Below are positions 11,810 to 52,216 of a stretch of 64,000 bases of DNA, piece after piece. Made by a program: the position numbers and the translations under genes. Below the pieces are notes generated by a model that was not told where the DNA came from, ran no database searches, and saw only the letters and a list, made by a program, of their open reading frames with translations. Positions within the stretch are counted from its first letter, which is position 1. The number at the start of each line of letters is the position of its first letter. Source of the DNA: Minisyncoccota bacterium (GTDB lineage: Bacteria; Patescibacteriota; Minisyncoccia; Phycocordibacterales; UBA9973); the NCBI GenBank assembly GCA_041659845.1, contig JBAZXM010000001.1:124-64123 (forward strand), in the 5' to 3' direction.

Positions 11810-12313
11810 ATGATTATACAAAACACATTAGCATATTATCGAAAACGTAAGGGCTACTTACAAACAGACACAATTAAAGTTTTAGGATTTTGTAGTACAA
11901 ACAGAATTTCTCGCTGGGAGAAAGGTACAGCGGTTCCAAGTATTCATAATTTAGCAAAGCTTTGTGCACTTTATGATGTTTCGCCTAAAACCCTGTATCC
12001 AGTTTTATTCGATGATTCAGAGAAACAAATAAATAAAAAGAAGTCTGATCTAGGGATTGTTTACCCATTCAGACTTTTATTAAAAGTATCAATCGCTGAA
12101 GTGCTTAAAATCAAGGAAGTATATGATCATATTTTTAAATCTCTGACAAATATTAATGAGTTTGCGTGTTTTAAGGAGAGTTATTTTTGGGAGCTATTTA
12201 TGCGACTGATCGATATTTTAATACTGCGACAAGTAGTGGCAATCAACCAAATTTATTCTCTCAGTCAAGCAGTGGAGGAATGGCAGGTAATGTGGCTAAT
12301 TTTAATTGTATAA
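11810..12313 (+). CDS. XRE-family helix-turn-helix transcriptional regulator (HTH confined to first ~65 aa; 3' part of ORF overlaps the next CDS and may not be translated as drawn)
   Basis: LQTDTIKVLGFCSTNRISRWEKGTAVPSIHNLAKLCALYDVSPKTLY = Cro/C1-type HTH. Confidence 0.55.
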   Translation: MIIQNTLAYYRKRKGYLQTDTIKVLGFCSTNRISRWEKGTAVPSIHNLAKLCALYDVSPKTLYPVLFDDSEKQINKKKSDLGIVYPFRLLLKVSIAEVLKIKEVYDHIFKSLTNINEFACFKESYFWELFMRLIDILILRQVVAINQIYSLSQAVEEWQVMWLILIV

Positions 12314-21500: not shown

Positions 21501-21538
21501 CGGCTGATATTCCACCATCCGAACCTGTGGTTGAATAA
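18518..21538 (+). CDS. Large surface fibre-like protein: signal/TM anchor, 8x 40-aa BNR(Asp-box)-type repeats, beta-rich central region, C-terminal Peptidase-S74 intramolecular chaperone (auto-proteolytic) domain, Pro/Ser/Thr-rich tail
   Basis: Repeats RVMTSPDGITWTSRTSAADNxWxxVTYGNGLFVAV (S-x-D-G-x-T-W Asp-box); C-terminus SSDQSLKHDITTL...NFKWNVD....IGFIAQEVQSIVPELV...L.V.Y..LIEGMKDL matches endosialidase/tail-spike chaperone domain. Confidence 0.7.
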   Translation: MSTIFKHTKLFFKRNSILIVSLASFAIFSSGLQLLASFSPGQTLDPNCTPGSVDCTVDVSNTLSKGTSWTSRTSAADNDWNGVAYGNGLFVAVANSGIGNRVMTSPDGINWTIRTSASNNAWRDITYGNGLFVAVSQDGVGNRVMTSPDGITWTSRTSAADNQWLGVTYGNGLFVAVSFDGTGNRVMTSPDGITWTSRTSAADNNWSNITYGNGLFVAVAQTGTGDRVMTSPDGITWTSRTSAADNDWLGVTYGNGLFVAVAQTGTGNRVMTSPDGITWTSRTSAADNTWRSVVYGNGLFVGVSSTGTGNRVMTSPDGITWTIRTSAADNGWDTITYGNGMFVAVGFSGTSNRVMTSGKTDYIPFSPNNIFQGGMNINGLVGIGGSPSENLTITTSDLATNLTFGIRALTAGGASSRSIFTQNATTGALTLGVDVGLNGTAREFIINTGSTERMRIESTGFVGINVNATSQPAYPNAKYILDVAGPTILVRNSAGGRFLAEDTDVADASSPFAYFQSDGGVIKIGNANRNAGTGLTTGSVDRMTILANGNLGIGTTSPTQKLDVTGSGRFIGTGTSVLTGSIDPTASTSVVGVGTLFTTELAVGDSITVNAETRRVTVITDALNLTVDTAFTDTANDTSPDKLVPVLDIQSSMAQISTTLKVSNTSASGGNILQMDRVNNSRANAINFTTLGASDWYMGVLRNAGNPTQTFGLSFGDANLTTNGFVVNSTGKFGIGTTTPTTLLYVGNSSVSGIVATFENSTGVCTINPTTSSVGCSSDQSLKHDITTLSNSMDKIRALRGVNFKWNVDQDSDPMRIGFIAQEVQSIVPELVSDMPNGKLGVNYAGFTPLLIEGMKDLDLRLKSLETLDDGTGSSPLKKLIMDYLLNTEEKIMNGIVRVQELITNKLTVGSSSQPAGVTLFDQVTSSPYCISVANGTLTTLSGVCGTAATPSSPSIGSGSPTTPPPSDPLPSDPDPSPGGEEVPPTPSDESVTPPADIPPSEPVVE
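18720..19600 (+). repeat. Coding tandem repeat, 120-bp period x ~8 (near-identical at DNA level)
   Basis: ggtatcacatggacttcacg... blocks recur every 120 nt; explains spurious antisense ORFs 19273..19633. Confidence 0.8.
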
Positions 21539-21556
21539 TGGTGTATACTAAAAGAA

Positions 21557-23452
21557 GTGATAGACCATAATGAAAAAATTACATATTTCGCCGAGACTGA
21601 TTTTAGGAATAAACAAGCACGCTTTGGTATAAAGGCAAAAGACCGCACTCGCCACATGTATGTCATCGGTAAGACAGGCATGGGTAAATCAACCATACTT
21701 GAAAATATGGCGATTCAAGATATTCAGAACGGCGAAGGTCTTGCATTCATCGATCCCCACGGCGGAACTGCTGAAAAATTACTTGATTATGTTCCCGAAC
21801 ACCGTATTAAGGATGTCGTCTATTTTGCGCCGTTTGATGCTGAATATCCGATGTCATTCAATGTTCTTGAGGATATCGGCGCAGACAAACGCCACCTGGT
21901 TGTTTCCGGCTTAATGAGTGTCTTTAAGAAAATCTGGCAGGATGCATGGAGCGCTCGCATGGAGTACATTCTAAACAACACATTACTCGCATTACTCGAA
22001 TATCCGGGCTCAACTTTGATGGGAGTGAACAAAATGCTTTCGGATAAAGATTTCCGAAAAAAGATTGTCGATAACGTACAAGACCCGGCAGTGAAATCAT
22101 TCTGGGTTGATGAATATGCAAAGTATACGGAAAAGTTCGCTGCTGAGGCGACGCCGGCTATTCAGAACAAAGTCGGTCAGTACACATTAAACCCACTCAT
22201 TCGAAACATCATCGGTCAGCCGAAATCATCATTTGATATTCGCGAGTTGATGGATACGAAGAAAATTTTCATTATCAATCTCTCTAAGGGTCGTATCGGC
22301 GAGCAGAATATGAATTTGCTCGGCGGCATGTTCGTTACGAAAATCTACCTAGCCGCGATGTCGCGTGCCGACCTTTCCGAAGCGGAAATCGCCAAGCTTC
22401 CACCATTTTATCTTTATGTAGACGAGTTCCAAAATTTCGCCAACGAATCTTTTTCTCAAATTCTTTCCGAAGCTCGAAAGTACAAATTCGCTCTTACAGT
22501 CGCCAACCAATATGTCACTCAAATGGTCGAGGAAGTCCGCGATGCTATTTTCGGCAACGTCGGATCGATAATTTGCTATCGCGTCGGTCCCGCCGATGCT
22601 GACCTTTTTGAAAAAGAATTTGCTCCGCAGTTCACAGCTGAGGATATAGTAAACCTAGGCCAGTTCCAAATGTATTTACGCTTGATGATTGACGGTGTCG
22701 GCTCGAAGCCATTTTCTGCTCGTGGTATGGCGCCTATTCCGCGGCCGGAAATTTTCTATCGAGAGCAAATAATCGAGAGTTCTCGAAAAGTTTTCGCCCA
22801 CACTCGTGCTGAAGTCGAAGAGGGAATAAAAGCCTGGCACGATACAATTTCTCAAAAGCCGGAAAGGCCGAAACGTGAAGAAATGCCTGCTGGCGGAAAT
22901 GAGTACCAGAGGCCTAGAGAATTTTCCGACCGGCAATTCGAAAGGCCGAGGCAGAATTTCCCGCCGAGAAATGATGCTCCGCGCAGGTTTGAAGGCGAAA
23001 ATAACAGGAGAAGTTTTCCACCTACCCCACCTCGCCAGGAAGCGCCAATTCACAAGCCTTTTGTTAAAGTTTTTGAAAAACCTCAAAAATTCGAACAGCC
23101 TCGCGCTTCTTCTCCGAAATTAAAATCACTTTTGAATGAGCTCGAAAAAAGCGAACCTTCTACGAAGTCTACTATGCCCGCATCTATGCCAGTACTTCGT
23201 CCAGAACCTGAGAAAAAAACTCTTTCCCTTCATAATCTAAATAAAGCTTCAACAGGGAAATCACTCAACCTTTCCGGGCTCAAGGATGTACTTGCAAGCG
23301 CATTGAAGGATATGCCGGAAAAGCCACGCCCAGCACCAGCGCCAGCACCTAAAAAAGAAAGCGAGCCGGAGGAAAAAATCACAACAAACGAAACACAAAA
23401 AAAACAAACAAAAGAAGTCCCTGAAGATGTTCTTAGAAAAATTTTGGAATGA
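21557..23452 (+). CDS. TraD/VirD4/TrwB-like type-IV coupling-protein ATPase without N-terminal TM segment, with ~200-aa Arg/Pro/Glu-rich low-complexity C-terminal tail
   Basis: RHMYVIGKTGMGKSTILENM...LAFIDPHGG (H..V.G.TG.GKS / DPkGe pattern), later LYVDEFQNFA and KYKFALTVANQYVTQM (QS..QL-like) ; tail ERPKREEMPAGGNEYQRPREFSDRQFERPRQNFPPRNDAPRRFE... Confidence 0.6.
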   Translation: MIDHNEKITYFAETDFRNKQARFGIKAKDRTRHMYVIGKTGMGKSTILENMAIQDIQNGEGLAFIDPHGGTAEKLLDYVPEHRIKDVVYFAPFDAEYPMSFNVLEDIGADKRHLVVSGLMSVFKKIWQDAWSARMEYILNNTLLALLEYPGSTLMGVNKMLSDKDFRKKIVDNVQDPAVKSFWVDEYAKYTEKFAAEATPAIQNKVGQYTLNPLIRNIIGQPKSSFDIRELMDTKKIFIINLSKGRIGEQNMNLLGGMFVTKIYLAAMSRADLSEAEIAKLPPFYLYVDEFQNFANESFSQILSEARKYKFALTVANQYVTQMVEEVRDAIFGNVGSIICYRVGPADADLFEKEFAPQFTAEDIVNLGQFQMYLRLMIDGVGSKPFSARGMAPIPRPEIFYREQIIESSRKVFAHTRAEVEEGIKAWHDTISQKPERPKREEMPAGGNEYQRPREFSDRQFERPRQNFPPRNDAPRRFEGENNRRSFPPTPPRQEAPIHKPFVKVFEKPQKFEQPRASSPKLKSLLNELEKSEPSTKSTMPASMPVLRPEPEKKTLSLHNLNKASTGKSLNLSGLKDVLASALKDMPEKPRPAPAPAPKKESEPEEKITTNETQKKQTKEVPEDVLRKILE

Positions 23453-23504
23453 TTAACAATTTATTTTTAAGATATTAGTGCCCAGCATAATTTTGCTAAA
23501 CCAT

Positions 23505-24971
23505 ATGAAAAAATATTTTCTGTTTGCTGTGATTCTGTTCTCTTGTTCCGCTTTTCAAGTACATGCGCAATTTGTATTTACTGAAATAATGTACGATTTG
23601 CCCGGGACTGACACTGACCATGAATGGGTTGAAATACAGAATACAGGAGCCACTGATGCGGATGTAACTGATTGGAAATTTAATGATGGCTCTAATCATA
23701 ATTTAAATACTCCGCCGACAAACGGGTCTCAAGGTTCTTTTACAATTCCTGTCGGTGAGTATGCTATTTTAACTGCTGACGCGGTGAAATTTTTGTCTGA
23801 TTATTCCGGCTACGCTGGTACTGTTATCGATACAGTAATGAGTTTGAACAATACAACAGATACTCTTAAATTGATTGATAAAAACGGGATAGAAATCGAT
23901 TCCGTAACATACGATTCATCAATCGGTGCATCGGGTGATGGAAATACGATTCAAAAATCCAGCTCTTCTTGGATAGCGAGCTCTCCTACTGTGGGAATTT
24001 CTTATTCGGTATCTTCGCAAGGCGGAGGAACTGGCACTCAAGGGGTGACTAGCGGAACCACATCTGTAACTTCCCCCTCTATCCCAATGACCGCGAAAGA
24101 CGACGGCACTCCTAAAATAACTGCGGATATTATTTTGAAAAACACTCCGATTACGGGAGTAGATGCTATTTTTGATGCGGCTGTGATCGGCTACAGTAAA
24201 GAAAAGATTACTCGCGGGAAGTTCGTTTGGAATTTTGGCGACGGAGTGACGGAAGAAACTTCCGAAATAAAAAAGATGGAGCATATTTACGATTATCCGG
24301 GAGATTATGTCGTGATGCTTGAATATTACCCCAATTCTTATAGCACTGATCCTGATGCCACAGACCGACTTGTTATAAGTGTGCTTAAACAACAAGTTAT
24401 TATTTCATCTATAGGTTTCGATGCAAATCCGTATGTTGAAATTTCAAATACCGGAACTCACGAAATTGATCTCTCAAGATTCATTTTACGAGCATCTTCG
24501 GGTGCACAATTTGTGTTTCCCAAAAATACTATTGTACTAGGAAATAAAAAAATAATCCTTTCTCCCAAGATGACACATTTCACCGCAGATGATGTGAAAA
24601 CTGCAACACTTTTATATCCGAGCGGGGAAGTCGCATTTGCATATGAGTCTGCTTTAGAGAAAATAGAAAAGCAGCCAAGAGAACAAGTACAAGATGAGAA
24701 AATCATTCAGGTGGAAGATGCAACGAAATCAATTATCGCAACTAATAATGAGGAAGTTAAAAGTTCGTCTATCTTAAATTCAAGTATTTCTCCAGAAAAT
24801 CTTCAAGCGAATGCATTTAACGCACTACCCGAATCAACTTCAAGTTCTTTTGGATTGTGGGCTTTCGGACTTATCGTTTTGATGGCACTTGCCGGGGGAG
24901 CTGTTGTATTTTTGAGATTTAATTACAGTAAAGTCCAGTCAAAGGCAGATGATTTCGAAATTCTTGAATAA
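23505..24971 (+). CDS. Extracellular membrane-anchored protein: signal peptide, Lamin-tail domain (LTD), PKD-like domain, second LTD, C-terminal TM anchor (ORF-track start 23478; ATG at 23505 precedes signal peptide)
   Basis: FVFTEIMYDLPGTDTDHEWVEIQNTGATDADVTDWKF (LTD), GKFVWNFGDGVTEETSE...YPGDYVVML (PKD), NPYVEISNTGTHEIDLSRFIL (LTD), LWAFGLIVLMALAGGAVVFL anchor. Confidence 0.65.
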   Translation: MKKYFLFAVILFSCSAFQVHAQFVFTEIMYDLPGTDTDHEWVEIQNTGATDADVTDWKFNDGSNHNLNTPPTNGSQGSFTIPVGEYAILTADAVKFLSDYSGYAGTVIDTVMSLNNTTDTLKLIDKNGIEIDSVTYDSSIGASGDGNTIQKSSSSWIASSPTVGISYSVSSQGGGTGTQGVTSGTTSVTSPSIPMTAKDDGTPKITADIILKNTPITGVDAIFDAAVIGYSKEKITRGKFVWNFGDGVTEETSEIKKMEHIYDYPGDYVVMLEYYPNSYSTDPDATDRLVISVLKQQVIISSIGFDANPYVEISNTGTHEIDLSRFILRASSGAQFVFPKNTIVLGNKKIILSPKMTHFTADDVKTATLLYPSGEVAFAYESALEKIEKQPREQVQDEKIIQVEDATKSIIATNNEEVKSSSILNSSISPENLQANAFNALPESTSSSFGLWAFGLIVLMALAGGAVVFLRFNYSKVQSKADDFEILE

Positions 24972-32251: not shown

Positions 32252-35200
32252 ATGAAGCAATACGATCACCTAAAAATCGAAAAGAAATGGCAGAAGGAAT
32301 GGGAGGCGAAGAAGGTTTACAAGACTGCTAATCCCGGCAAAATGAAAAAGCATTATGTGCTTGATATGTTTCCATACCCGTCCGGTGCGGGCCTTCATGT
32401 CGGCCATCCACGCGGATATATTGCAAGTGATGTATATGCGCGCATGAAGCGCATGCAAGGCTTCAATGTTCTTCACCCTATGGGCTTTGACTCATTCGGA
32501 TTGCCGGCAGAGCAATATGCAATACAAACAAAGAAGCACCCAGGGCCTTTCACTGAAAAGCTTGTGGAGCTCTACAAGAAGCAGCTTGAGATTATAGGCT
32601 TCTCATATGATTGGAGCAGGGAAGTCGCGACGCACAGGCCTGAATATTACAAATGGACGCAGTGGATATTTTTAAAACTCTATGATGCCTGGTATGACCA
32701 AACAAAAGATAAAGCGCGCGATATCAGTGAGCTGGTAAAAATTTTTAATAAAAATGGCAATGAAAATGTGAATGCTGTGTGTGATCAAAACACACCAACT
32801 TTTTCCGCGAAAGAATGGAAGCAGATGAGCGAGATGGAAAAGCAGAATATGCTCATGAAATATCGCTTGGCATACGAAGGCTATAGCGAAGTGAATTGGT
32901 GCTCGAAGTTAGGAACGGTGCTTGCGAATGATGAAATTGTAGATGGGCCTGACGGCAAGCCAGTCTCCGAGCGCGGCGGATTCGGAGTAGAAAAGAAATC
33001 CATGCGACAGTGGTTTATGAGAATAACTGCATATGCAGATAGATTACTTTCAGGCCTCGAAGGTCTTGATTGGTCATCACATATAAAAGAAATACAGAAG
33101 AATTGGATAGGGAAGAGTGAGGGGTCGGAGATCAGTTTTAAAATTGTTTCTGGAGATAAAAAAGATCTAGATAATCCCTTAGGTAGGAGAACCGACCTAG
33201 GATCTATTACAGTTTTCACTACAAGGGCTGATACGCTTTTCGGCGTCACCTATGTTGTTCTTGCGCCGGGGCATTTATTTCTTGAAAATATTAAAACTAG
33301 AATTTCAAATTGGAAAGAAGTTGAAAAATATCTTGATGTAATAAAAAACAAATCTGAAGAAGACAGAATAAAGGAAGGTGAAAAAACAGGTATTGAATTA
33401 AAGGGTATCATGGCAATCAATCCTGCAAATGGAGAAGTGGTACCTGTCTGGATAGCTGATTATGTCTTGGCAAATTACGGTACTGGTGCAGTAATGGCTG
33501 TGCCTGCACACGATGAGCGTGATTTCGAATTTGCGAAGAAATATAAATTACCGATTCGTGATGTTGTAGCAAAAATGATTGGCGAACATCATCATGAAAA
33601 TAATATTCGTGACGTTGCAGAGGGTGTCATTATTAAAGACGACCAGGTTCTTGTAATGGAATATAAAAATCAATATGGTTTGCCGGGTGGAGGAATTGAA
33701 GAAGGTGAAACTCCTGAGCAAGCATTATTAAGAGAAATCAGAGAAGAAATCGGGTATACAGATGTTGAAATTGTCGAATATCTAGGACAAGCAAATCGTT
33801 ATTATTTCTCGGATCGAGATCAAAAGAAAAAAGTAAGACATGCATATGGATATGTAGTAAAAATACTAAGTAACAAAAAAAACCCTACTGCTCCTCATGA
33901 AATTGATAAGCCTGTATGGCTCCCTATATCGGAAGCAATTCAAAAAGTTCAACAGAGTCCAATCTATTACCAAAGTAATTTTATTGACCGGGCGTTTAGT
34001 GGTATGGGGCAATGTTTTGTTGATAATGGCGTTTTGATTCAATCAGGGCAATTTGACAGCTTAACTTCTGAAGAAGCTCGTAAGAAAATTACCGAATTTG
34101 TCGGAGGTAAATTGATCACTAAATACAAAATGCGCGACGCGATTTTTGCTCGGCAGAGATATTGGGGCGAGCCGATTCCGCTTTCGACTGACAAGGATGG
34201 GATTATTCATGAAGTCAAAAAACTTCCACTTAAACTCCCAAATGTGAAATCATACGAGCCGGCAGGCACGGGTGAGAGTCCGCTTGCGGGAGTGAAGGAT
34301 TGGGTCAAGCATGGCTACGAGACAAATACCATGCCTGGTTGGGCGGGAAGCTCATGGTATTTCTTGCGTTACATGGACCCAAAAAATAAAAGTGCAATAG
34401 CAAGCAAACAAGCGATCAAATACTGGAAAGATGTGGACATGTATGTCGGCGGTGCAGAGCACGCAACAGGGCACTTGTTGTACTCGCGTTTCTGGCACAA
34501 ATTCTTGAAAGATATCGGCATTGCACAGACAGAAGAACCATTTAAAGCGCTTCGCAACCAAGGCTTGATAGGCGGTGCTGATGGGCGCAAGATGAGTAAG
34601 CGCTGGGGGAATGTCATAAACCCTGATGAGATTGTAAAAACTTATGGCGCTGATACACTCCGTGTCTACGAAGCATTCATGGGACCTTTTGATCAATCAC
34701 TTCCGTGGTCCACAGAGAGCATTATCGGCTCACGCAGATTTATTGAAAAAGTTTGGAGGATGGGGGAGAAAACAATTCTCGCTTCGCATAATTCTTTTCA
34801 AAAAGGTCCTCGGGTCGCCCGTGCAGGTTTATCAGGGAAGAGCGGGCTCGACCAGACCGTTTTTGAAAAGAACTCTGCTGCGCTTAAGAAAGTGCTTCAC
34901 AAAACTATTAAAAAAGTTACGGAAGACATTGCGAATTTTAATTTCAATACCGCAGTCTCAGCGATGATGATTTGCGCGAATGAAATGGAAAAAGCTGAAT
35001 ATGTTTCCGTGGAAGATTTCAAAAAATTCTTACAAATTTTAGCACCATTTGCCCCACATGCGTCTGAAGATCTTTGGCGTGAGCTCGGTGAGAAAAAATC
35101 AATCCATCTTTCAGAATGGCCTCTGTATGATAAGAAAAAGATTATTGATGACACTATCACTATTGCCATTCAGGTTAATAGCAAAGTCCGCGCAGAAATT

Positions 35201-35341
35201 TCTATTCCTATTGATATGAGCGAAAATGATCTAAAAAAACTTGTTTTGGAAAATCCTGCGACCAAGCAATGGACAGAAGGCAAGGAAATAAAGCGAATTA
35301 TCCATGTCAAAGGCAAGCTCGTCAATATAGTTATTGCTTGA
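32252..35341 (+). CDS. leuS: Leucyl-tRNA synthetase carrying an in-frame ~140-aa Nudix-hydrolase domain insertion (nt ~33565..34015) between the editing domain and the leucyl-specific/KMSKS region
   Basis: HVGHPRGY (HIGH), KMSKRWGN (KMSKS), GTGAVMAVPAHDERDFEFA editing-domain end; insertion contains perfect Nudix box GGGIEEGETPEQALLREIREEIGY. Confidence 0.9.
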   Translation: MKQYDHLKIEKKWQKEWEAKKVYKTANPGKMKKHYVLDMFPYPSGAGLHVGHPRGYIASDVYARMKRMQGFNVLHPMGFDSFGLPAEQYAIQTKKHPGPFTEKLVELYKKQLEIIGFSYDWSREVATHRPEYYKWTQWIFLKLYDAWYDQTKDKARDISELVKIFNKNGNENVNAVCDQNTPTFSAKEWKQMSEMEKQNMLMKYRLAYEGYSEVNWCSKLGTVLANDEIVDGPDGKPVSERGGFGVEKKSMRQWFMRITAYADRLLSGLEGLDWSSHIKEIQKNWIGKSEGSEISFKIVSGDKKDLDNPLGRRTDLGSITVFTTRADTLFGVTYVVLAPGHLFLENIKTRISNWKEVEKYLDVIKNKSEEDRIKEGEKTGIELKGIMAINPANGEVVPVWIADYVLANYGTGAVMAVPAHDERDFEFAKKYKLPIRDVVAKMIGEHHHENNIRDVAEGVIIKDDQVLVMEYKNQYGLPGGGIEEGETPEQALLREIREEIGYTDVEIVEYLGQANRYYFSDRDQKKKVRHAYGYVVKILSNKKNPTAPHEIDKPVWLPISEAIQKVQQSPIYYQSNFIDRAFSGMGQCFVDNGVLIQSGQFDSLTSEEARKKITEFVGGKLITKYKMRDAIFARQRYWGEPIPLSTDKDGIIHEVKKLPLKLPNVKSYEPAGTGESPLAGVKDWVKHGYETNTMPGWAGSSWYFLRYMDPKNKSAIASKQAIKYWKDVDMYVGGAEHATGHLLYSRFWHKFLKDIGIAQTEEPFKALRNQGLIGGADGRKMSKRWGNVINPDEIVKTYGADTLRVYEAFMGPFDQSLPWSTESIIGSRRFIEKVWRMGEKTILASHNSFQKGPRVARAGLSGKSGLDQTVFEKNSAALKKVLHKTIKKVTEDIANFNFNTAVSAMMICANEMEKAEYVSVEDFKKFLQILAPFAPHASEDLWRELGEKKSIHLSEWPLYDKKKIIDDTITIAIQVNSKVRAEISIPIDMSENDLKKLVLENPATKQWTEGKEIKRIIHVKGKLVNIVIA

Positions 35342-44578: not shown

Positions 44579-45295
44579 TTATTGTCGACTCATTCGTTTT
44601 AGTTTTTCAAACAAGAGCATAATCATAATTGTTACCACCCATAGGAATCCAAAGACGTTCAGGAAATTTTCTCCATTATCTTTCATTATAAAAAAGTTAA
44701 ATACACTATGCAAGGTGATTGCTGCCGCAAGTCCGAAGACAAGATGGATTTTCTTGGAAAACCAACCGTTAAAGTAAGAAAGCCCTAGGGAAATACCGAC
44801 CAATGCGCTCGATGTGGCATGCAGGAGTGTTGCGCCCAGAAAGCGCAAATTACCCGTAATCAAACTCGTAGTGGTATCTGCGGCGGCTAGTGGATGCATC
44901 AGGAATAGAGTATTCTCCAGAGCGGCAAAACCAAGCGCAGTTGCGATAAAGTAGATAGGGTAGTCGATAGGCTCATTGAGTTCTTTACTGCGCAATGCGA
45001 TCAGGCCAACAGCTAGATATTTTGCCACTTCTTCAATGGATGCCCAGATTACAATTAGCATATTTTTGTCGTCGAGCAAACTATTCGCAAATTTTTCAAG
45101 TGGGAGGACGAGCATCACTGAAAGCGCTCCTAATATAAAGGTGATTACGATAAGCCCGAGAGGCTCCGGATGTTCACGATCTTCTCGCAGCCAAAACCAT
45201 AACCAGAGCAGCGCCGGAACGAGGCCAAGTAAAAAAGCAGTAGCGAGGTTTTTCAAAAAAACAGGATCCGAAAATTGGTTTATTGCGTCGGCCAT
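44579..45295 (-). CDS. prsW: PrsW-family intramembrane metalloprotease
   Basis: IEEVAKY (EExxK), FAALENTLF, HATSSALVG, HSVFN motifs in multi-TM protein. Confidence 0.65.
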   Translation of the reverse strand: MADAINQFSDPVFLKNLATAFLLGLVPALLWLWFWLREDREHPEPLGLIVITFILGALSVMLVLPLEKFANSLLDDKNMLIVIWASIEEVAKYLAVGLIALRSKELNEPIDYPIYFIATALGFAALENTLFLMHPLAAADTTTSLITGNLRFLGATLLHATSSALVGISLGLSYFNGWFSKKIHLVFGLAAAITLHSVFNFFIMKDNGENFLNVFGFLWVVTIMIMLLFEKLKRMSRQ

Positions 45296-47517
45296 TTGGT
45301 TGCGATCAATAGGTTATCATTTTCATTTTTAATCATCGACCATATTTCTTCGGTAACGAATGGCATAAAAGGGTGGAGCATGATGATATTCGTTTTTAAA
45401 ATTTTTTTAAGCGTCCATGCTCGGGAAGTTTTTTCTTCTTCGGTGCCTGTTTTGAAAACTTCTTTGCTTTCCTCTAAAATAATATCGGCGAATTCACTCC
45501 AGCTATAATGATAGAGTTTTTCTCCTGCGAGATGGAATCGGAATTCTTCTATGTCTCCCGTAATTTCTTTGGTGAGCTCTTCTAATCTGTCTATAAGTTT
45601 TTGATCTTTATCGGTGATTTTTGGTTTTTGTGACCCGTCTGCGCTGGCAGGAATTTCAATTCCATCAATACTTGAAAGTACGAAGCGCGTGATATTCCAA
45701 AGTTTGTTTGCAAAATGTTTGTAGCCTTTGATTTTATCTTCCGAAATTCGCATATCAGTGCCTGGAGTATTTCCGATAATCAACGCAATACGACCGGCAT
45801 CTGCACCGTATTTTTGCGCTATTTCTACAGGGTCAAGAGCATTACCGAGAGACTTTGACATTTTTTGTCCCTTCGCATCTCGGACAAGTCCACTTAAATA
45901 AACAGTATGAAATGGAACAGTCCCAAGTGCGTAGCCAGTCATGAGTACCATGCGCGCAACCCAAAAGAATAAAATATCGTAGCCGGTTTGGAGTACGTTT
46001 GTCGGGTGATAGATTTCCAAATCCTTAGTCTTTTCGGGCCAGCCGAGGGTTGAGAAAGTCCAAAGCCCAGAGGAAAACCAAGTATCAAGAGTATCTTCAT
46101 CTTGGATCCAACCTTCACCTTCCGGTGTCTCAACTCCGACATGAATTTCCTTATCTTTATACCAAACGGGAATACGATGGCCATACCAAATCTGGCGCGA
46201 AATGCACCAATCTCGCAGATTTTCAATCCAGTGAAAATATGTTTTATTGAAATGCTCTGGGATAATTGCTGTCTGTCCATTCTCTACAACTTTTTTCATA
46301 ATCTCTTTGAGAGTCGTCTGTGATCCGCTTTCAATACCTTTGATTTCAGAATGTGGAAGTGTGAAAGATTTATTCACATCGATGAACCACTGCAGTTTAG
46401 GCAAAGGTTCGATAATTCCGCCAGTGCGCTCGGCAGTAGAAATATTTTGATTAGCTTCTTCCTCTTTTTCAAGCAAACCTTCGCTACGGAGCCATTCAAC
46501 GATTATTTCTCGAGCATCAGTTGTTTTTTTACCCAAGATTCGTTCATCACCAATCATCATTTTTGCGTATTCATTTATGACTTGCGGGCGAGGCAGATCA
46601 TGACGGTCGGCAATTTCCCAGTCGATCATTGAGTGTGAGGGTGTGACACCGAGTGCTCCAGTGCCGAAATCTTTTTCCACAGATTCATCGGCAATAATCT
46701 TAATTTCAAGCGGAACTCCACAGAAATCCCTTACCCCATAGGTCTTGCCTATGTATTCTTTATAGCGCGGATCATCAGGATGCACTGCCACAGCCGTATC
46801 GCCGATTTTAGTTTCGGGGCGAGTGGTGGAAATAGAGATAGGGAAGTCGTGTGAATATTTGAAAGTATAAAGTTTCGATTTGCGTTCCTCATAGACAATT
46901 TCATCATCAGCGATTGTCGTTTGACCTTTCGGGTCCCAATTTACAATGCGATGCCCGCGGTAGATAAGCCCATCTTCGTGCATTTTTTTAAACATCGTAT
47001 ATACGGCTTTTGTGCGAGTTTCGTCAAGTGTGAATGCTTCTCGAGACCAGTCACAAGAAGAGCCTATGGCGCGAACCTGCGACGTGATGGTGTCGTGCGA
47101 TTCTTGGGCAAATTCTCTAACTCTTCTGAGTAATTCTTCACGGCCTAGATCATGACGTGATTTTCCTTCTTTCTTTTGAATTTCTTTTTCAACTTTCGAC
47201 TGCGTAGCGATTGCCGCATGGTCGGTTCCAGGGATCCAAAGTGTGCGGTCGCCCTTCATGCGGTGGTAGCGGATCATAATGTCCTCAAGTGTGAGCATGA
47301 GAGCGTGCCCCATATGAAGAACTCCTGTGACATTAGGTGGAGGCATGATTATCGTGAAAGGCTTTGCATCCTCTTTCGTCACGCCCTTTTCAATACATAT
47401 ATCAGGATTGAAAAATCCAATTTCCTCCCATATCGCATAAATTCGCCCTTCCGTTTCGGCGGGATTGTAGGGTTTCAATAATCTTTCATCAATTTGGGGA
47501 AATTCCTTCTCATTCAT
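45280..47517 (-). CDS. valS: Valyl-tRNA synthetase, compact (745 aa; no C-terminal coiled-coil)
   Basis: PPPNVTGVLHMGHA (HIGH), KMSKSLGN, editing domain present. Confidence 0.9.
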   Translation of the reverse strand: MNEKEFPQIDERLLKPYNPAETEGRIYAIWEEIGFFNPDICIEKGVTKEDAKPFTIIMPPPNVTGVLHMGHALMLTLEDIMIRYHRMKGDRTLWIPGTDHAAIATQSKVEKEIQKKEGKSRHDLGREELLRRVREFAQESHDTITSQVRAIGSSCDWSREAFTLDETRTKAVYTMFKKMHEDGLIYRGHRIVNWDPKGQTTIADDEIVYEERKSKLYTFKYSHDFPISISTTRPETKIGDTAVAVHPDDPRYKEYIGKTYGVRDFCGVPLEIKIIADESVEKDFGTGALGVTPSHSMIDWEIADRHDLPRPQVINEYAKMMIGDERILGKKTTDAREIIVEWLRSEGLLEKEEEANQNISTAERTGGIIEPLPKLQWFIDVNKSFTLPHSEIKGIESGSQTTLKEIMKKVVENGQTAIIPEHFNKTYFHWIENLRDWCISRQIWYGHRIPVWYKDKEIHVGVETPEGEGWIQDEDTLDTWFSSGLWTFSTLGWPEKTKDLEIYHPTNVLQTGYDILFFWVARMVLMTGYALGTVPFHTVYLSGLVRDAKGQKMSKSLGNALDPVEIAQKYGADAGRIALIIGNTPGTDMRISEDKIKGYKHFANKLWNITRFVLSSIDGIEIPASADGSQKPKITDKDQKLIDRLEELTKEITGDIEEFRFHLAGEKLYHYSWSEFADIILEESKEVFKTGTEEEKTSRAWTLKKILKTNIIMLHPFMPFVTEEIWSMIKNENDNLLIATKWPTQ

Positions 47518-47548: not shown

Positions 47549-48814
47549 TTAAAGTGATAAATTTCCCTTAGCTTTGATTCCAGAAATTGAATGTTTTTTC
47601 TTTTTTAGATAGGTGAAATATCCTGCCATGGCTATCATAAGAGAATTGTCGGTGGAAAGGCCTTTATCAGGGAAGTAAATCTTCAACTTGGGAGCTGAGC
47701 TCCCGAGTGATTTTGCGAGAGATTCTCGGATGTGGGTGTTGGCAGAGACGCCTCCACCGACGATGAGCATTTTCGCCCCATATTTTTCAATCGCGAGCAT
47801 TGTCTTTTTCATTAACACTTCTGTCACAGAATCTTCGAATTCGCGTGCTATTTCTTTTTTTATTTCTTCCGTTAATCCCTTTGGTGTCTCGTTGATTTTT
47901 TGTATCAAATAAAGAACCGCAGTTTTTAATCCGGAAAATGAAAAATCAAAATCTTTCGTATGGATCATCGGTCGGGGGAGGATATTAGGAAAGAGTAGGT
48001 TCTGAGGGTACGCAATTTTCTTGCTAGAAAATTGCTCAGTCCTCGCGTCAGTCGCGCTGTGGGGTCCCTCAGAACCCACTCTTTCCTTTCTAGATTCCGC
48101 GGCAAGGCGGGAAATTTGCGGTCCGCCGGGGTATGGGAGCCCAAGCATGCGTGCGACTTTATCAAACGCTTCACCGACAGCATCATCACGCGTCTCGCCG
48201 ATTTTTTTATATTTCATCCAGTCTTTTATCAGAATAAGCTCAGTGTGCCCGCCTGAAATAAGTAGTGCGATTGCGGGTAGGGGGAAATCTTTCGTATTTA
48301 CATTTTTGCCATCAGTCGGTAGAACAGAAAGAATGTGACCCTCCATATGATTAACCGGAATAACAGGAATATCCCATGCAGAGGATAGCGATTTGGCGAA
48401 ATTAACCCCGACCCACAGTGCTGGTTCGAGTCCAGGGCCATATGTGACTGCAATGGCATCAATCTTTGGTTTTTTGATTAAAGGAATATATTCCAGTAAA
48501 TCTTTCAATAATTCGGGCTCACGGTCTAAAATTTTCGATAATTTTCTCTCTTGTTTTTTATCTGATACTTTTTTCTTGAGAGGTTTTTCCATCTTTGCTT
48601 CTGTAAGAACTCTTTTCAAGATTGGAATGCAAGCCTTCGTGTGCTCGCGCTTAGCGACAGCAGGGAAGACGCCTCCGTATTGCGCATGGAGGCTAGCCTG
48701 TGAAGCGATTTCATTCGCCAATACTTTGAATTTGGGTGTTTTGACGGTACCACTCGCTTCTATGATTGAAAGCGCGGTTTCGTCGCAACTAGTTTCAATA
48801 GAGAGAATTTTCAT
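47549..48814 (-). CDS. tsaD: tRNA N6-adenosine threonylcarbamoyltransferase TsaD (Kae1/YgjD), with ~50-80 aa lysine-rich insertion
   Basis: MKILSIETSCDETALSIIE, metal-binding HMEGH, GGGVSAN. Confidence 0.82.
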   Translation of the reverse strand: MKILSIETSCDETALSIIEASGTVKTPKFKVLANEIASQASLHAQYGGVFPAVAKREHTKACIPILKRVLTEAKMEKPLKKKVSDKKQERKLSKILDREPELLKDLLEYIPLIKKPKIDAIAVTYGPGLEPALWVGVNFAKSLSSAWDIPVIPVNHMEGHILSVLPTDGKNVNTKDFPLPAIALLISGGHTELILIKDWMKYKKIGETRDDAVGEAFDKVARMLGLPYPGGPQISRLAAESRKERVGSEGPHSATDARTEQFSSKKIAYPQNLLFPNILPRPMIHTKDFDFSFSGLKTAVLYLIQKINETPKGLTEEIKKEIAREFEDSVTEVLMKKTMLAIEKYGAKMLIVGGGVSANTHIRESLAKSLGSSAPKLKIYFPDKGLSTDNSLMIAMAGYFTYLKKKKHSISGIKAKGNLSL

Positions 48815-48886: not shown

Positions 48887-49504
48887 ATGGAGCTTAAAAA
48901 ATTTAAAATAATGAAAAATGAAAAACTCATAATTTTTGCCGGGCCATCTGGCGTTGGTAAATCAACTATTAGTAAGCATATTCTAGAAAAGAGAAATAAT
49001 GAATGTGCCTTCTCAATATCAGCGACAACTAGAAAGCCTCGCCCTGGGGAGATTAATGGACAACACTACCACTTTCTTTCTGTTGAGGAATTCAAGCAAA
49101 AGATAAAAGAGAATGCCTTTGCTGAATATGAGGAGGTTTATGAGGGAATTTTCTATGGTACTTTCGTTTCAGAAATTGAAAGTATTTTTGCGATTGGAAA
49201 GGCTGTCATCTTTGATATCGATGTCTATGGAGCTCTTAATCTCAAAAATAATTATGGAGATAATGCATTAACAATAATTGTTACTCCTCCTACACTGGAT
49301 GACCTCAAGAAACGCCTAACTGCTCGTGATTCAGAAACTGAAGAAAGCCTTAAAAAGCGTCTTGATAAAGCAGAAGAAGAGCTTTCTCATCATGGTGAAT
49401 TTGATCAAGTAATTGTCAATGCCGACGGTTCTGTTGAGCTTGAGAAAACTCTTGCAAAATCATTGAAAATCGTCGACGAATTTCTTGCCTTAAAATTGGC
49501 ATAA
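48887..49504 (+). CDS. gmk: Guanylate kinase
   Basis: IIFAGPSGVGKSTI P-loop, SATTRKPRPGEINGQHYHF. Confidence 0.88.
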   Translation: MELKKFKIMKNEKLIIFAGPSGVGKSTISKHILEKRNNECAFSISATTRKPRPGEINGQHYHFLSVEEFKQKIKENAFAEYEEVYEGIFYGTFVSEIESIFAIGKAVIFDIDVYGALNLKNNYGDNALTIIVTPPTLDDLKKRLTARDSETEESLKKRLDKAEEELSHHGEFDQVIVNADGSVELEKTLAKSLKIVDEFLALKLA

Positions 49505-49508
49505 ATCA

Positions 49509-49545
49509 AAAAGCCAGAACGCGTACGCGTTCTGGCTTTTATTTT
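49509..49545. terminator. Bidirectional terminator shared by gmk (+) and tRNA-Val (-)
   Basis: aagccagaacgcg ta cgcgttctggctt flanked by A/T runs. Confidence 0.75.
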
Positions 49546-49622
49546 TGGTGCGCGGTGAGGAATTCGAATCCCCGGCCTACCCCACGTCAAGGGGTCGCTC
49601 TAACCAGCTGAGCTAACCGCGC
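49546..49622 (-). tRNA. tRNA-Val (anticodon GAC), CCA encoded
   Basis: GCGCGGTTAGCTCAGCTGGTTAGAGCGACCCCTTGACGTGGGGTAGGCCGGGGATTCGAATTCCTCACCGCGCACCA on minus strand. Confidence 0.9.
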
Positions 49623-49733
49623 ATATATACTCAAAAATCTTACACAAAAATTGTCTTTTTCGCAATGTTTTGACTTATTTTAGATAAAGGAACATACTTT
49701 TTGCAGACACATTTAAAAGAAAGGAGGTGTTCA

Positions 49734-50156
49734 ATGAAACATGTATATATAACAACCTATGATGATGAAGAATTTGAGAAAACAGCGCATTTAGCTAGCT
49801 TCAGGCCACTACTACACATTGCTTTCTTGTCTTCGACCATTGAAAAAGTTTGGGATATTAAAAAGCTCTACTGTCTTCCGATGAGGGAAAAAATATTTAA
49901 GGAAGATCTTAAAAATCCGATGTTTGAACAAGCCTTGAGAATAATTTGTAAAGAAATTATCGCTGAGATTTCAGATGATTCTTATATTATTTTCATAGTG
50001 CCGAACATTTTAAAAGAAATCATTATTGATTTATTCACGAAAGAGAATATTGAGACACATGATGAATCTTTTAATAAGGAATATCATGATCTAATGAAAG
50101 GATTTAAGGCATGGAGATGGCCTGTCGAAAATCCTAACGGATATCTAAACAATTAA
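49734..50156 (+). CDS. Small hypothetical protein, member 1 of a tandem array of 4 (starts MKHVYITTYDDEEF; AAGGAGG RBS 49721..49727)
   Basis: ORF + RBS + own terminator (50154..50180 aaaaaagccc ttttg gggcttttt). Confidence 0.55.
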   Translation: MKHVYITTYDDEEFEKTAHLASFRPLLHIAFLSSTIEKVWDIKKLYCLPMREKIFKEDLKNPMFEQALRIICKEIIAEISDDSYIIFIVPNILKEIIIDLFTKENIETHDESFNKEYHDLMKGFKAWRWPVENPNGYLNN

Positions 50157-50240
50157 AAAAGCCCTTTTGGGGCTTTTTATTATTTTGACTTTTTATATTG
50201 GAAGTGCATAATGTGTTTAACTGTTCTAAAAAAATAAATC

Positions 50241-50765
50241 ATGAAAAGAGATATCATCATTGTAACATATGGCGATAAATTTTTCGCCAATGTTTATACC
50301 AAGAATGCCAATATTCAGCCAGCTCTCGTATTAATTAGTAAGGAAGCTTTCAGTTATATGGAAAAATTTCATAATAGAGATGAAGCAATAGGTTTGATAA
50401 CTGATCAGCAGATAGAATACGAAAAAGCAGCTGGTGATGAAGATACGCAGGATATTGATGTGATCAATAATTTGATACAGCAAGCCTTTGACGACCTAGG
50501 TCGTTCATGCGTAATACTTGCGGTAGATGCTGATGTTGCTGAGGATTTTTTGAAAGTATTTGATCCTGAGATATTTGGAGCAACCCTTTATAAGGAATTT
50601 ATTATTTTTAAAAAACGCAAAGCAAAATCAGGAGAAATTTTCGTTCTCACTTCCAATGAAGGTTCAGCCAGTAATGGTTCTGAATTTTATTATGATCTTG
50701 TTCCTATGAAGGATTATATTAACGAAGACCCTACTGGTGAACAAAATAATCCTTCTCAGAATTAA
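50241..50765 (+). CDS. Small hypothetical protein, array member 2 (MKRDIIIVTYGDKFF...)
   Basis: ORF with own terminator (50764..50789 aaaagccgca tatt tgcggctttt). Confidence 0.5.
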   Translation: MKRDIIIVTYGDKFFANVYTKNANIQPALVLISKEAFSYMEKFHNRDEAIGLITDQQIEYEKAAGDEDTQDIDVINNLIQQAFDDLGRSCVILAVDADVAEDFLKVFDPEIFGATLYKEFIIFKKRKAKSGEIFVLTSNEGSASNGSEFYYDLVPMKDYINEDPTGEQNNPSQN

Positions 50766-50860
50766 AAGCCGCATATTTGCGGCTTTTTAGTTCCCAATAT
50801 TGCTTTTTTCCTGGCAGGTGTATACTTGACGTAAGTATCGTTTATTTACATTTTAAAAAT

Positions 50861-51325
50861 ATGGTCATGGAAAGTTTGATTTTAGTTGTTGTAACCTATG
50901 CTAATAAAGAGGTTGTGAAGAGATATAAGATGGATTTAGTTTATTTTAGCAAAGAAGTCCGGAGTCTGCTGAGGGGAAAACATTCATGGTTTTTTGCCTC
51001 TGAGAATTTATGGATACAATCTAAAACTGGCAATACGGATCAAGAAGTTGCGGAAAAAGTTGTGATGGGAATAAAATCATCAAGAATAGCATGTCTTATT
51101 TGTCCGCATCATCGCAAGGAAGAGCTTGTTGCTAAAATCCAAGAGCTTGCATCAATTGAGATTTATGATAGCGAGTTTCCTTTGAATGAATCTGTTTCCG
51201 AAAATGAATTATATATAGTCAAATTTTTTTACAACAAAGGAAAGTTAAAAAAATCAATCGCTTTCCGACTATTATCATTTCGCCTCGGCTTGCCGCTTCT
51301 CGGAGCTGATCCAGGAGAAAATTAA
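50861..51325 (+). CDS. Small hypothetical protein, array member 3 (probable start MVMESLILVVVTYANKE; track start 50777 lies inside previous terminator)
   Basis: ORF with own terminator (51325..51350 aaccctgc tttttg gcagggtttttt). Confidence 0.45.
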   Translation: MVMESLILVVVTYANKEVVKRYKMDLVYFSKEVRSLLRGKHSWFFASENLWIQSKTGNTDQEVAEKVVMGIKSSRIACLICPHHRKEELVAKIQELASIEIYDSEFPLNESVSENELYIVKFFYNKGKLKKSIAFRLLSFRLGLPLLGADPGEN

Positions 51326-51480
51326 CCCTGCTTTTTGGCAGGGTTTTTTATGTTACCTTTTTTTATCTGGGTATATACTATATTGATCCGAAAACCAATT
51401 AAAAACCCTCAATTTTTTTTGGTTTGTTTTTTCCTGAAATGAGTGCATACTAGGCAAAATGTTTCTTAAAACAAATTCTG

Positions 51481-51963
51481 ATGAAAAAGAAAACCATCTA
51501 TATAATCCCTTTCGGAGACCCTGAGCTTCCAGTGCTTTCAGGCTGTCAGACAAAGAAGCCGATGGCATATCTTAGGATTGGTGTTGGGATAGTACTTATG
51601 AGCGCTATCGACAGTTTTCATGCAGGCAATGAAGAGCAATATGATTTTTTATTTATTCCGGACGAACATTGGGGAAATAAAAATCATTTTGAGGTATGTA
51701 AATATTACAAATATCTAATTGCTGAAAAATTTGGAGATAGGGTTGATTGTTTATTTCTTTTTGTAAATCATGCACATCTTCTTGAACTAAACGTGTTTAT
51801 TGAAGAATTGAACTGCACATTACATCAGTCAATTTTCGACAAAACAAAAAAGTTGAATAATGGAAAGTTCTATATTGTGGACATTCGCCATAATTTACAA
51901 ACAGGAAAGATATCATCTAAATTACACGAATACATACCCAAGCGCAAAAAACCGGCACCATAG
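51481..51963 (+). CDS. Small hypothetical protein, array member 4 (MKKKTIYIIPFGDPEL...)
   Basis: ORF; stop codon inside hairpin terminator 51945..51976 (accggcac cata gtgccggt + T5) shared with tRNA-Ser on the other strand. Confidence 0.5.
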   Translation: MKKKTIYIIPFGDPELPVLSGCQTKKPMAYLRIGVGIVLMSAIDSFHAGNEEQYDFLFIPDEHWGNKNHFEVCKYYKYLIAEKFGDRVDCLFLFVNHAHLLELNVFIEELNCTLHQSIFDKTKKLNNGKFYIVDIRHNLQTGKISSKLHEYIPKRKKPAP

Positions 51964-51980
51964 TGCCGGTTTTTATATTG

Positions 51981-52067
51981 CGGAGGCGGTGAGATTTGAA
52001 CTCACGATACGGTTTCCCGTATGCTGGTTTTCGAAACCAGTGCCTTCAACCACTCAGCCACACCTCC
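51981..52067 (-). tRNA. tRNA-Ser (anticodon CGA), long variable arm, CCA not encoded
   Basis: GGAGGTGTGGCTGAGTGGTTGAAGGCACTGGTTTCGAAAACCAGCATACGGGAAACCGTATCGTGAGTTCAAATCTCACCGCCTCCG on minus strand. Confidence 0.88.
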
Positions 52068-52140: not shown

Positions 52141-52212
52141 GGCCCTATCGTCTAACGGTTAGGACATTGCCTTTTCAAGGCAGTAATCAGAGTTCGATTC
52201 TCTGTAGGGTCA
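52141..52212 (+). tRNA. tRNA-Glu (anticodon TTC), CCA not encoded
   Basis: GGCCCTATCGTCTAACGGTTAGGACATTGCCTTTTCAAGGCAGTAATCAGAGTTCGATTCTCTGTAGGGTCA. Confidence 0.88.
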
Positions 52213-52216
52213 CAAA

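Follow-up and report, generated by a model that had tools for sequence, protein, structure and literature searches.

Four small genes in tandem between tRNA genes

The window analyzed here, a stretch of 64,000 nucleotides from contig JBAZXM010000001.1 of a Minisyncoccota bacterium (assembly GCA_041659845.1), contains four small open reading frames (ORFs) in tandem, designated O1 to O4, between a tRNA-Val gene on one side and the genes for tRNA-Ser and tRNA-Glu on the other (Table 1). All four are located on the plus strand and do not overlap, and the order along the contig is tsaD, gmk, tRNA-Val, the array, tRNA-Ser, tRNA-Glu and truB. An earlier note made from this DNA had described the same-strand array in this position, and the four N-termini it quoted match the sequence exactly. 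Only its start of O1 has to be corrected: the TTG at position 49701 is merely the earliest one in the open frame, whereas the quoted N-terminus MKHVYITTYDDEEF (MKHVYITTY) starts with the ATG at 49734. For O3 an alternative ATG at 50867 leads to a protein of 152 aa (the MESLIL form), which is the start chosen by NCBI. The corresponding NCBI records MFA5933645-48, from a contig of 72.5 kb, read 'MAG: hypothetical protein WC795_00255-00270 [Candidatus Paceibacterota bacterium]' (MAG, metagenome-assembled genome), and this source label agrees with the origin in the Candidate Phyla Radiation (CPR) that the note had supposed. The reading that we favor, and hold to be rather probable, is that O1 to O4 are real genes and much-diverged tandem copies of one protein known only from this Paceibacterota lineage.

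Coding potential of the four ORFs

To score coding potential we used codon log-odds trained on the 29 long ORFs of the window. In the annotated frame O1 to O4 reached values of 0.16, 0.32, 0.14 and 0.11, all inside the interval spanned by the contig's other small genes (0.07–0.35), and for each of the four ORFs the score was negative in all five other frames. By our own arithmetic, an open frame of 140 codons is expected by chance with a probability of ~2.5e-5 at 34% GC content. Four such frames that follow each other on one strand cannot be put down to noise. Their GC content is 31–36%, the long genes of the contig reach 40.7%, and several further small genes of the contig are as AT-rich as O1 to O4.

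The opposite possibility, that O1 to O4 are spurious frames in a non-coding spacer or in DNA that encodes RNAs, would account for the lack of homologues and known domains for O1 to O4. It has to explain, however, four frames of 140–174 codons on a single strand in DNA of 34% GC, a frame-specific codon bias in four out of four cases, terminators placed exactly at the stop codons and a strong Shine-Dalgarno sequence at O1, and an Rfam scan of the array region detected tRNAs only. We regard spurious ORFs as extremely unlikely and, on these sequence features, take O1 to O4 to be genuine protein-coding genes.

Relatedness of O1 to O4

The kinship of the four proteins was judged against 50 control proteins from the same contig. 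Of these, 21 were small, and the 29 long ones were represented by their first 155 residues. All pair scores are given as z relative to composition-preserving shuffles. End-to-end alignment of the six sibling pairs yielded z values of 5.0, 0.6, 1.4, 2.9, 4.3 and 4.2 with a mean of 3.06. In comparison, control quadruples scored 0.23±0.46, the highest of 50,000 came to 2.96 and none to 3.06, and O1 to O4 aligned to the controls gave 0.27. The six pairwise alignments together thus exceed every control quadruple, which bears out the idea of a fast-diverging paralogous family put forward in the note. Local alignments point in the same direction: z values of 1.3, 3.4, 0.7, 2.1, 1.9 and 3.3 were obtained for the six pairs (mean 2.11), 0.08±0.44 for control quadruples and a mean of 0.14 for O1 to O4 against the controls, and the fraction of control quadruples that reached 2.11 was 5e-5. 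Without the N-terminal motif the mean local z was 1.76, and the best local alignments are collinear in five of the six pairs. The proteins are not linked to each other in equal measure. O1 is tied to the family chiefly via O2, because its end-to-end scores with O3 and O4 are low, and O3 is tied to it via O4 and O2.

In detail, the shared features start with a hydrophobic first strand at the N-terminus, followed by a loop with the sequence TYGD, TYDD, TYAN or PFGD, i.e. [TP][YF][GDA][DN]. A pattern of M, 1–6 residues, at least three hydrophobics and [TP][YF][GDA][DNK], which was written after seeing O1 to O4, matched only these four among the 419 six-frame ORFs of the window, and it was found in 3 of 11,609 background ORFs in comparison to four out of four in the array. 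The N-terminal regions of O1 and O3 share a 27-nt stretch with 78% identity (repeat D3). Further downstream there is a conserved Ser near residue 30, which by eye ends the second hydrophobic stretch, a strand of the type 'hhhhhV[DPN]' followed by a helix at about residues 85–110, and a 'G.hYIV' hairpin in O2, O3 and O4. A C-terminal tail of the form [EA][DN]P.G..N is common to O1, O2 and O3 and could serve as a recognition or degradation tag. The tail sequences are VENPNGYLNN in O1 (50127-50156), NEDPTGEQNNPSQN in O2 (50724-50765) and GADPGEN in O3 (51305-51325); O4 ends with KRKKPAP. At the DNA level, 34 nt in the 3' part of O3 (51197-51230) recur with 76% identity at 51387-51420 (repeat D1). 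This copy is located in the spacer between O3 and O4, which is unusually long (155 nt), and could be what remains of a lost gene copy, or else a chance match of AT-rich sequence. Further DNA repeats are short and at chance level, apart from the 27-nt match of O1 and O3, the similar -35 boxes and the terminators.

Several observations weigh against a common ancestry of the four genes. No single pair is significantly similar: the best pairwise BLASTP hit has an E-value (E) of 0.003, and phmmer among O1 to O4 gave E ~1 in the 419-ORF database. Leave-one-out hidden Markov models (HMMs) ranked the omitted member 85th, 4th, 1070th and 794th of 12,028 ORFs. The end-to-end z values of O1 with O3 and with O4 are only 0.6 and 1.4, and the best local match of O1 and O3 is non-collinear, as it pairs residues 81-133 of O1 with residues 3-49 of O3. 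In addition, the low-confidence structure models and the empty Foldseek searches described below do not demonstrate a common fold, and the GC content of 31–36% would also fit a foreign origin. Taking both sides together, tandem duplication followed by extreme divergence seems to us, with moderate confidence, the best reading of the kinship of O1 to O4.

The out-of-register match (49974-50132 versus 50867-51007) is noteworthy in its own right, as the N-terminal half of O3 matches the C-terminal half of O1 with a z of 5.8. This would suggest a past internal duplication or a domain shuffle in O1. An internal duplication of a beta-alpha module was rejected for the proteins: the mean z of N-terminal against C-terminal halves was 0.48, and only the combination of the O3 N-half with the O1 C-half stood out.

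Promoter-like sequences and terminators

A sigma-70-type promoter is predicted in front of each ORF from matches to the consensus, and the putative -10 boxes (49693-49698, 50207-50212, 50849-50854 and 51446-51451) all start with CAT and not with TAT. The sequence AGTGCATA[AC]T is common to the putative promoters of O2 and O4. A clear Shine-Dalgarno sequence is present at O1 only. O3 is possibly leaderless, because its putative -10 box would set the start of the transcript at about position 50861, directly on the ATG.

The note had also assigned an independent terminator to each ORF, and this assignment holds: four GC hairpins with T-runs and folding energies from -12.4 to -21.4 kcal/mol are located at or directly against the ends of all four ORFs (Table 1). 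Their folding z ranges from -3.1 to -6.8 relative to dinucleotide shuffles. A generic terminator scan caught two of the four, as in the other two the stem continues through A/T pairs into the T-run, and our own scan, in which the stem is anchored on G/C pairs, caught all four. With this, the array holds 4 of the 21 terminator-like sites on the plus strand of the 64 kb in 3.6% of the sequence (2.3 kb). The hairpin between O4 and tRNA-Ser consists of a 7-bp GC stem with A and T runs on either side and was detected on both strands. The terminator of O2 could work in both directions as well, because an A-run and a T-run flank the hairpin. Another bidirectional terminator, a perfect 32-nt palindrome (49509-49540), is located between gmk on the plus strand and the convergent tRNA-Val gene on the minus strand.

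Table 1. Array genes, predicted expression signals and flanking tRNA genes (window positions).
Feature	Position	Strand	Description
tRNA-Val(GAC)	49546..49622	-	left edge of the array; ARAGORN; Rfam tRNA, 64.2 bits; 3' end toward gmk, promoter side toward O1
Putative O1 promoter	49670..49698	+	TTGACT, 17-nt spacer, CATACT; consensus scan and regular expression
Shine-Dalgarno sequence AAAGGAGGTG of O1	49720..49729	+	GGAGG core 6 nt upstream of ATG 49734; read from the sequence
O1	49734-50156	+	140 aa; isoelectric point (pI) 5.4; NCBI MFA5933645 (WC795_00255)
O1 intrinsic terminator	50156..50183	+	AAAAAGCCC-TTT-GGGGCTTTTT, then T-run; -12.4 kcal/mol
Putative O2 promoter	50185..50212	+	TTGACT, 16-nt spacer, CATAAT; TG directly before -10 box; consensus scan and regular expression
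O2	50241-50765	+	174 aa; pI 4.4; acidic insert at about residues 60-75; NCBI MFA5933646
O2 intrinsic terminator	50764..50788	+	AAAAGCCGC-ATATTT-GCGGCTTTTT; -18.8 kcal/mol
Putative O3 promoter	50826..50854	+	TTGACG, 17-nt spacer, CATTTT; regular expression
O3	50861-51325	+	154 aa; pI 8.8; NCBI MFA5933647
O3 intrinsic terminator	51324..51349	+	AACCCTGC-TTTTTG-GCAGGGTT, then TTTT; -15.3 kcal/mol
Putative O4 promoter	51424..51451	+	TTGTTT, 16-nt spacer, CATACT; weak -35 box; regular expression
O4	51481-51963	+	160 aa; pI 8.8; 8 His and 4 Cys; NCBI MFA5933648
O4/tRNA-Ser bidirectional terminator	51946..51974	both	AAAAAACCGGCAC-CATA-GTGCCGGTTTTT; -21.4 kcal/mol
tRNA-Ser(CGA)	51980..52067	-	right edge of the array; ARAGORN and Rfam; 3' end abuts the O4 terminator
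tRNA-Glu(TTC)	52141..52213	+	directly upstream of truB; ARAGORN and Rfam

A terminator and a promoter-like site for each ORF agree with the view of the note that the array is composed of four monocistronic units and not of an operon, and O1 to O4 as four independent transcription units appear well supported by these signals. Each copy would then consist of a promoter of the type TTGnnn/16–17 nt/CATnnT, a leader that is short or missing, the ORF and a terminator at the stop codon, and the four putative promoters would give rise to four separately regulated mRNAs with predicted starts at about 49705, 50219, 50861 and 51458.

A series of short same-strand ORFs with an inverted repeat after each is also the layout of integron cassettes. 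In the array, however, the inverted repeats are perfect GC stems of 13–18 nt with T-runs and not attC sites (at least 57 nt), a promoter-like site is assigned to each ORF and no IntI is present in the 64 kb. An integron cassette array is therefore excluded by the type of hairpin and the missing IntI.

Searches for relatives

Word-based protein searches covering 5.8 billion proteins were performed with all of O1 to O4, and each protein retrieved itself alone. An exhaustive phmmer search, which was restricted to O4 and covered 1.84 billion representatives, returned O4 alone. Each of the four proteins forms a singleton cluster at 90% identity among ~15 billion sequences and comes from one MAG. 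At the DNA level the only further copy is a Logan contig of 2,434 bp (run SRR18595301), which is identical to positions 49573-52006 of the window (0 mismatches) and breaks inside the tRNA-Val and tRNA-Ser genes.

Profile and structure databases gave the same picture. Pfam, PHROGs, NCBIfam and PADLOC yielded nothing below E 0.02 for O1 to O4 (PHROGs at least 0.046), PADLOC together with the Pfam immunity models no match, and sequence searches of the PDB nothing below E 0.15. No relatives of O1 to O4 were detected in scans of IMG/VR, and a tblastn search of 50,697 GenBank phage records remained without a hit up to an E of 1. The note had been unable to place the proteins in a known family, and the lack of a significant match in Pfam, NCBIfam, PHROGs, PADLOC and the PDB agrees with this. 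Literature searches turned up no work that deals specifically with arrays of this kind in CPR bacteria.

The genomic neighborhood was compared by means of a truB-based synteny set of 80 CPR metagenome loci with a TruB identity of at most 52%. In none of the 80 loci were tsaD, gmk, SDR, HAD or trxR found within 10 kb of truB, and in some of them a tRNA-Ser(gga) gene is located upstream of truB. A gmk-based scan of genome contigs led to Bacteroidota/Chlorobiota and other non-CPR Gmk loci with at most 58% identity, which were of no use for a synteny comparison. Relatives of O1 to O4 were found neither in the 80 truB-anchored loci nor in any of 161 related loci.

The orphan status may in part reflect a failure of homology detection in an under-sampled lineage. 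Since the nearest retrievable organisms are at most 52% identical in TruB, fast-evolving small proteins are expected to fall below detection. PMC7660931 makes this argument in general terms. Within the contig O1 to O4 are not alone in this respect, as a single Pfam scan also left 6 of 10 other small ORFs without a match.

Native region or mobile element

Phage morons are promoter-ORF-terminator units inserted between conserved genes, and the array resembles them by an own promoter-like site and intrinsic terminator for each gene, by its deviant composition and by its placement between conserved genes. It is possible to read O1 to O4 as a horizontally acquired islet of such moron-like cassettes, left behind by a tRNA-entered mobile element or a phage whose integrase has been lost, whether or not the genes share an ancestor. 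The orphan state of the four proteins would fit this reading, as would the adjoining gmk, which is nearest to Bacteroidota/Chlorobiota and not to CPR. In contrast to morons, O1 to O4 appear to be paralogous, lack a prophage context and have no match in PHROGs, IMG/VR or the GenBank phage records, and their collinear similarity suits duplication better than independent capture.

The position of the array also recalls a tRNA-associated genomic island. tRNA genes are located on both flanks, the 3' end of tRNA-Ser lies against the array, and the deviant base composition of such islands is present in form of a GC content below that of the long genes. On the other hand, the array measures only 2.3 kb and is devoid of an integrase, mobility genes and a direct repeat of a tRNA 3' end. 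The note had already remarked on the absence of an integrase, and a Pfam scan of ~50 ORFs of the 64-kb window detected no integrase, transposase or recombinase domain. An att-like duplicate of any tRNA 3' half was not found, as exact copies of at least 14 nt of the 3' halves of tRNA-Ser or tRNA-Val are absent elsewhere in the window, and repeat D2 reflects merely the resemblance of two tRNA ends. In codon usage O1 to O4 do not stand apart from the other small genes of the contig, and several of those have as high an AT content. Hence, the tRNA-flanked integration hotspot with cassettes implied by the note could not be upheld: integrase, tRNA 3' duplication and viral relatives are all missing and the codon usage is host-like. 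Position and lower GC alone favor this idea, which we consider unsupported, and an acquired islet as such seems unlikely to us.

Like species-specific orphan genes of prokaryotes (PMC11293555), O1 to O4 are short, coding-like and without homologues outside one species-level genome, but here four of them are adjacent, interrelated and each equipped with a promoter-like site and a terminator. Their GC content is 5–9 points under that of the long genes of the contig. Vakirlis & Kupczok (2024, PMC11293555) tie a lower GC to a virus-like minority of orphans, from which O1 to O4 differ by having no viral similarity despite their lower GC. In our favored reading the array most probably formed where it is now, in the core chromosome between housekeeping genes, through duplication of one ancestral gene and fast divergence, and not through site-specific integration.

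Structure predictions and possible function

The AlphaFold model of O4 alone reached a predicted local distance difference test (pLDDT) value of 36 and a predicted template modeling (pTM) score of 0.24, and the model of O3 with the four-sequence alignment a pLDDT of 53 and a pTM of 0.51. Both low-confidence models show the same order of elements, i.e. strand 1, a central strand, a helix and a C-terminal beta-hairpin. Foldseek found nothing at E ≤ 0.001, neither in the PDB (best E 0.28) nor in BFVD (best E 0.014, TM-score 0.22). Entries of the phosphoglycerate mutase family appeared at non-significant Foldseek ranks only. Resemblances to SixA/histidine phosphatases, PPAT and TIR, which came from the N-terminal strand and loop, were rejected as they have no support from Pfam or PDB sequence searches.

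Neither a signal peptide nor a convincing membrane span is present in O1 to O4, and we infer that they are small (16–20 kDa) soluble cytoplasmic alpha/beta proteins. The conserved positions comprise the hydrophobic core, the loop after strand 1, one Ser and the C-terminal tail, and no catalytic-looking polar residue is among them. Because of this lack of conserved residues of a catalytic type, together with pI values from 4.4 to 8.8, the proteins might be non-catalytic binding proteins with diversified surfaces. As part of the duplication scenario, the copies would then act as stand-alone binders.

Arrays of orphan immunity genes of polymorphic toxin systems and interbacterial defence clusters are composed of tandem, small, fast-diverging genes on the same strand, which often belong to no family. 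O1 to O4 share with them the tandem same-strand arrangement, the predicted cytoplasmic location and the absence of conserved catalytic residues. They differ in that the array contains no toxin gene, no recombinase and no repeated intergenic element and has no match to Pfam immunity models or PADLOC. For the function, diversified binding proteins with an immunity-like or partner-recognition role are the guess that we favor, although we give it a low probability.

A more specific identity was considered for O3. Cgi121 (TPRKB) is the tRNA-binding subunit of KEOPS, and TsaD is the bacterial homologue of Kae1. O3, and by extension the family, might be an extremely diverged Cgi121-like partner of TsaD in the t6A modification of tRNA. 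A phmmer search with O3 against the PDB found M. jannaschii Cgi121 with E 0.21 over 76 collinear residues, both proteins are equal in length, the pairwise local z is 7.5 and hhalign gave a probability of 38% for this pair. In the reverse direction, M. jannaschii Cgi121 as query placed O3 at the top of 12,028 decoy ORFs (E 0.009). Furthermore, tsaD is located two genes off, and the array borders on truB and three tRNA genes. However, an E of about 0.2 is expected by chance for the best of 177,635 sequences over five such searches, and the match is thus not significant database-wide. The Pfam model CGI-121 (PF08617) matches none of O1 to O4 at E up to 10. A three-member profile lowered the score of O3 from 15.3 to 5.4 bits (rank 22) and the hhalign value from 38% to 2%, and because the family profile lowers the score, the likeness would concern residues specific to M. 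jannaschii. It is also confined to O3, as O1, O2 and O4 have z values below 1 with Cgi121. The low-confidence model of O3 ends in a beta-hairpin, whereas the C-terminus of Cgi121 is helical in the published structure, and Cgi121 is not among the top 50 of Foldseek. We consider a Cgi121-like protein very unlikely.

In another reading, O1 to O4 would be degenerate duplicates of a neighboring gene for a Rossmann-like enzyme, either Gmk upstream or HAD downstream, that have lost their catalytic motifs. Three-member profiles in two leave-one-out searches placed Gmk ORFs at the top of 12,028 (E 0.028–0.46), the Gmk profile ranked O1 4th and O4 5th of 419, and the HAD protein gave a local z of 3.0 with O1 and 2.1 with O2. 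None of these E-values is significant, though, and the Gmk HMM gave E of at least 4. The P-loop GxxGxGK[ST] and the DxD motif are absent from O1 to O4, and Pfam revealed no Guanylate_kin or HAD match. With hhalign values of at most 1.3% against an 80-member Gmk alignment, where the aligned regions are moreover inconsistent, a Gmk-derived pseudo-kinase is rejected; the same applies to a HAD-like pseudo-enzyme, for which hhalign against the HAD protein of the contig gave at most 1.6% and a Pfam HAD match is missing. Degenerate enzymes are accordingly among the least probable explanations, to be dismissed for practical purposes. The likenesses to Gmk and HAD are the generic start of alpha/beta proteins with strand 1 and a loop.

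Other features of the contig

The genes upstream of the array encode, according to Pfam, HSP20, PrsW, a class-I aminoacyl-tRNA synthetase (aaRS), TsaD and Gmk, and the downstream genes TruB, SDR, a protein without assignment, a HAD hydrolase and TrxR (thioredoxin reductase). MreBC, Tgt, UvrABC, Ddl, MurJ, LepA, FtsAZ and similar proteins are encoded elsewhere in the window. Pfam matched the TsaD model to two separated stretches of the 421-aa TsaD (47549-48814), and this split points to lineage-specific insertions. The class-I aaRS at 45280-47517 is the second of the contig. A 1,029-aa leucyl-tRNA synthetase (32252-35341) contains a NUDIX hydrolase domain at residues 456-564 beside the editing domain. 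Large genes with putative functions at the surface or in secretion are clustered at 18518-24971 and encode a 1,006-aa Peptidase_S74 protein (endosialidase chaperone), an ATPase similar to the coupling protein of type IV secretion systems and to HerA, and a protein with lamin-tail and PKD domains.

Two genes recall Bacteroidota. The closest relatives of Gmk (48887-49504) are MAGs of Bacteroidota/Chlorobiota with up to 58% identity, and none of the 80 loci that the scan of GTDB genomes kept is named CPR. The GC content at third codon positions of gmk is 27%. gmk may have been acquired horizontally, although the scan was pattern-based and is hence biased. The second gene (12187-13818) encodes a 543-aa protein with CARDB, BACON and Por_Secre_tail (E 1.9e-12). 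Por_Secre_tail is a C-terminal sorting domain of type IX secretion, which is typical of Bacteroidota and unexpected on a Paceibacterota contig. Taken together, the two genes hint that genes were exchanged with Bacteroidota or that there are problems with the binning.

Implications

The four proteins are new in the sense that no family exists for them, and clusters of lineage-specific, fast-diverged small paralogues are well known in the poorly sampled CPR. More tentatively, and with considerable doubt, one may think of a natively born family, possibly with a new fold, that expanded in one Paceibacterota lineage and recognizes variable partners. It would have originated through duplication and runaway divergence and not have been imported from a virus. 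The diversified surfaces and the C-terminal tail would then serve this recognition, for example in immunity or in the interaction of an episymbiont with its host.

Small orphan proteins abound in CPR genomes, and as the array is known from one genome its practical value is limited at present. The four natural variants might nevertheless be of use for solving a perhaps undescribed small alpha/beta fold. If our reading is true, O1 to O4 would be four paralogues at the edge of detectability, each with an own promoter and terminator and all in a core region devoid of mobile-element machinery, and a compact case of orphan genes that arise and multiply within a reduced CPR genome. In this way the array bears on the debate whether prokaryotic orphans are of native or of viral origin.

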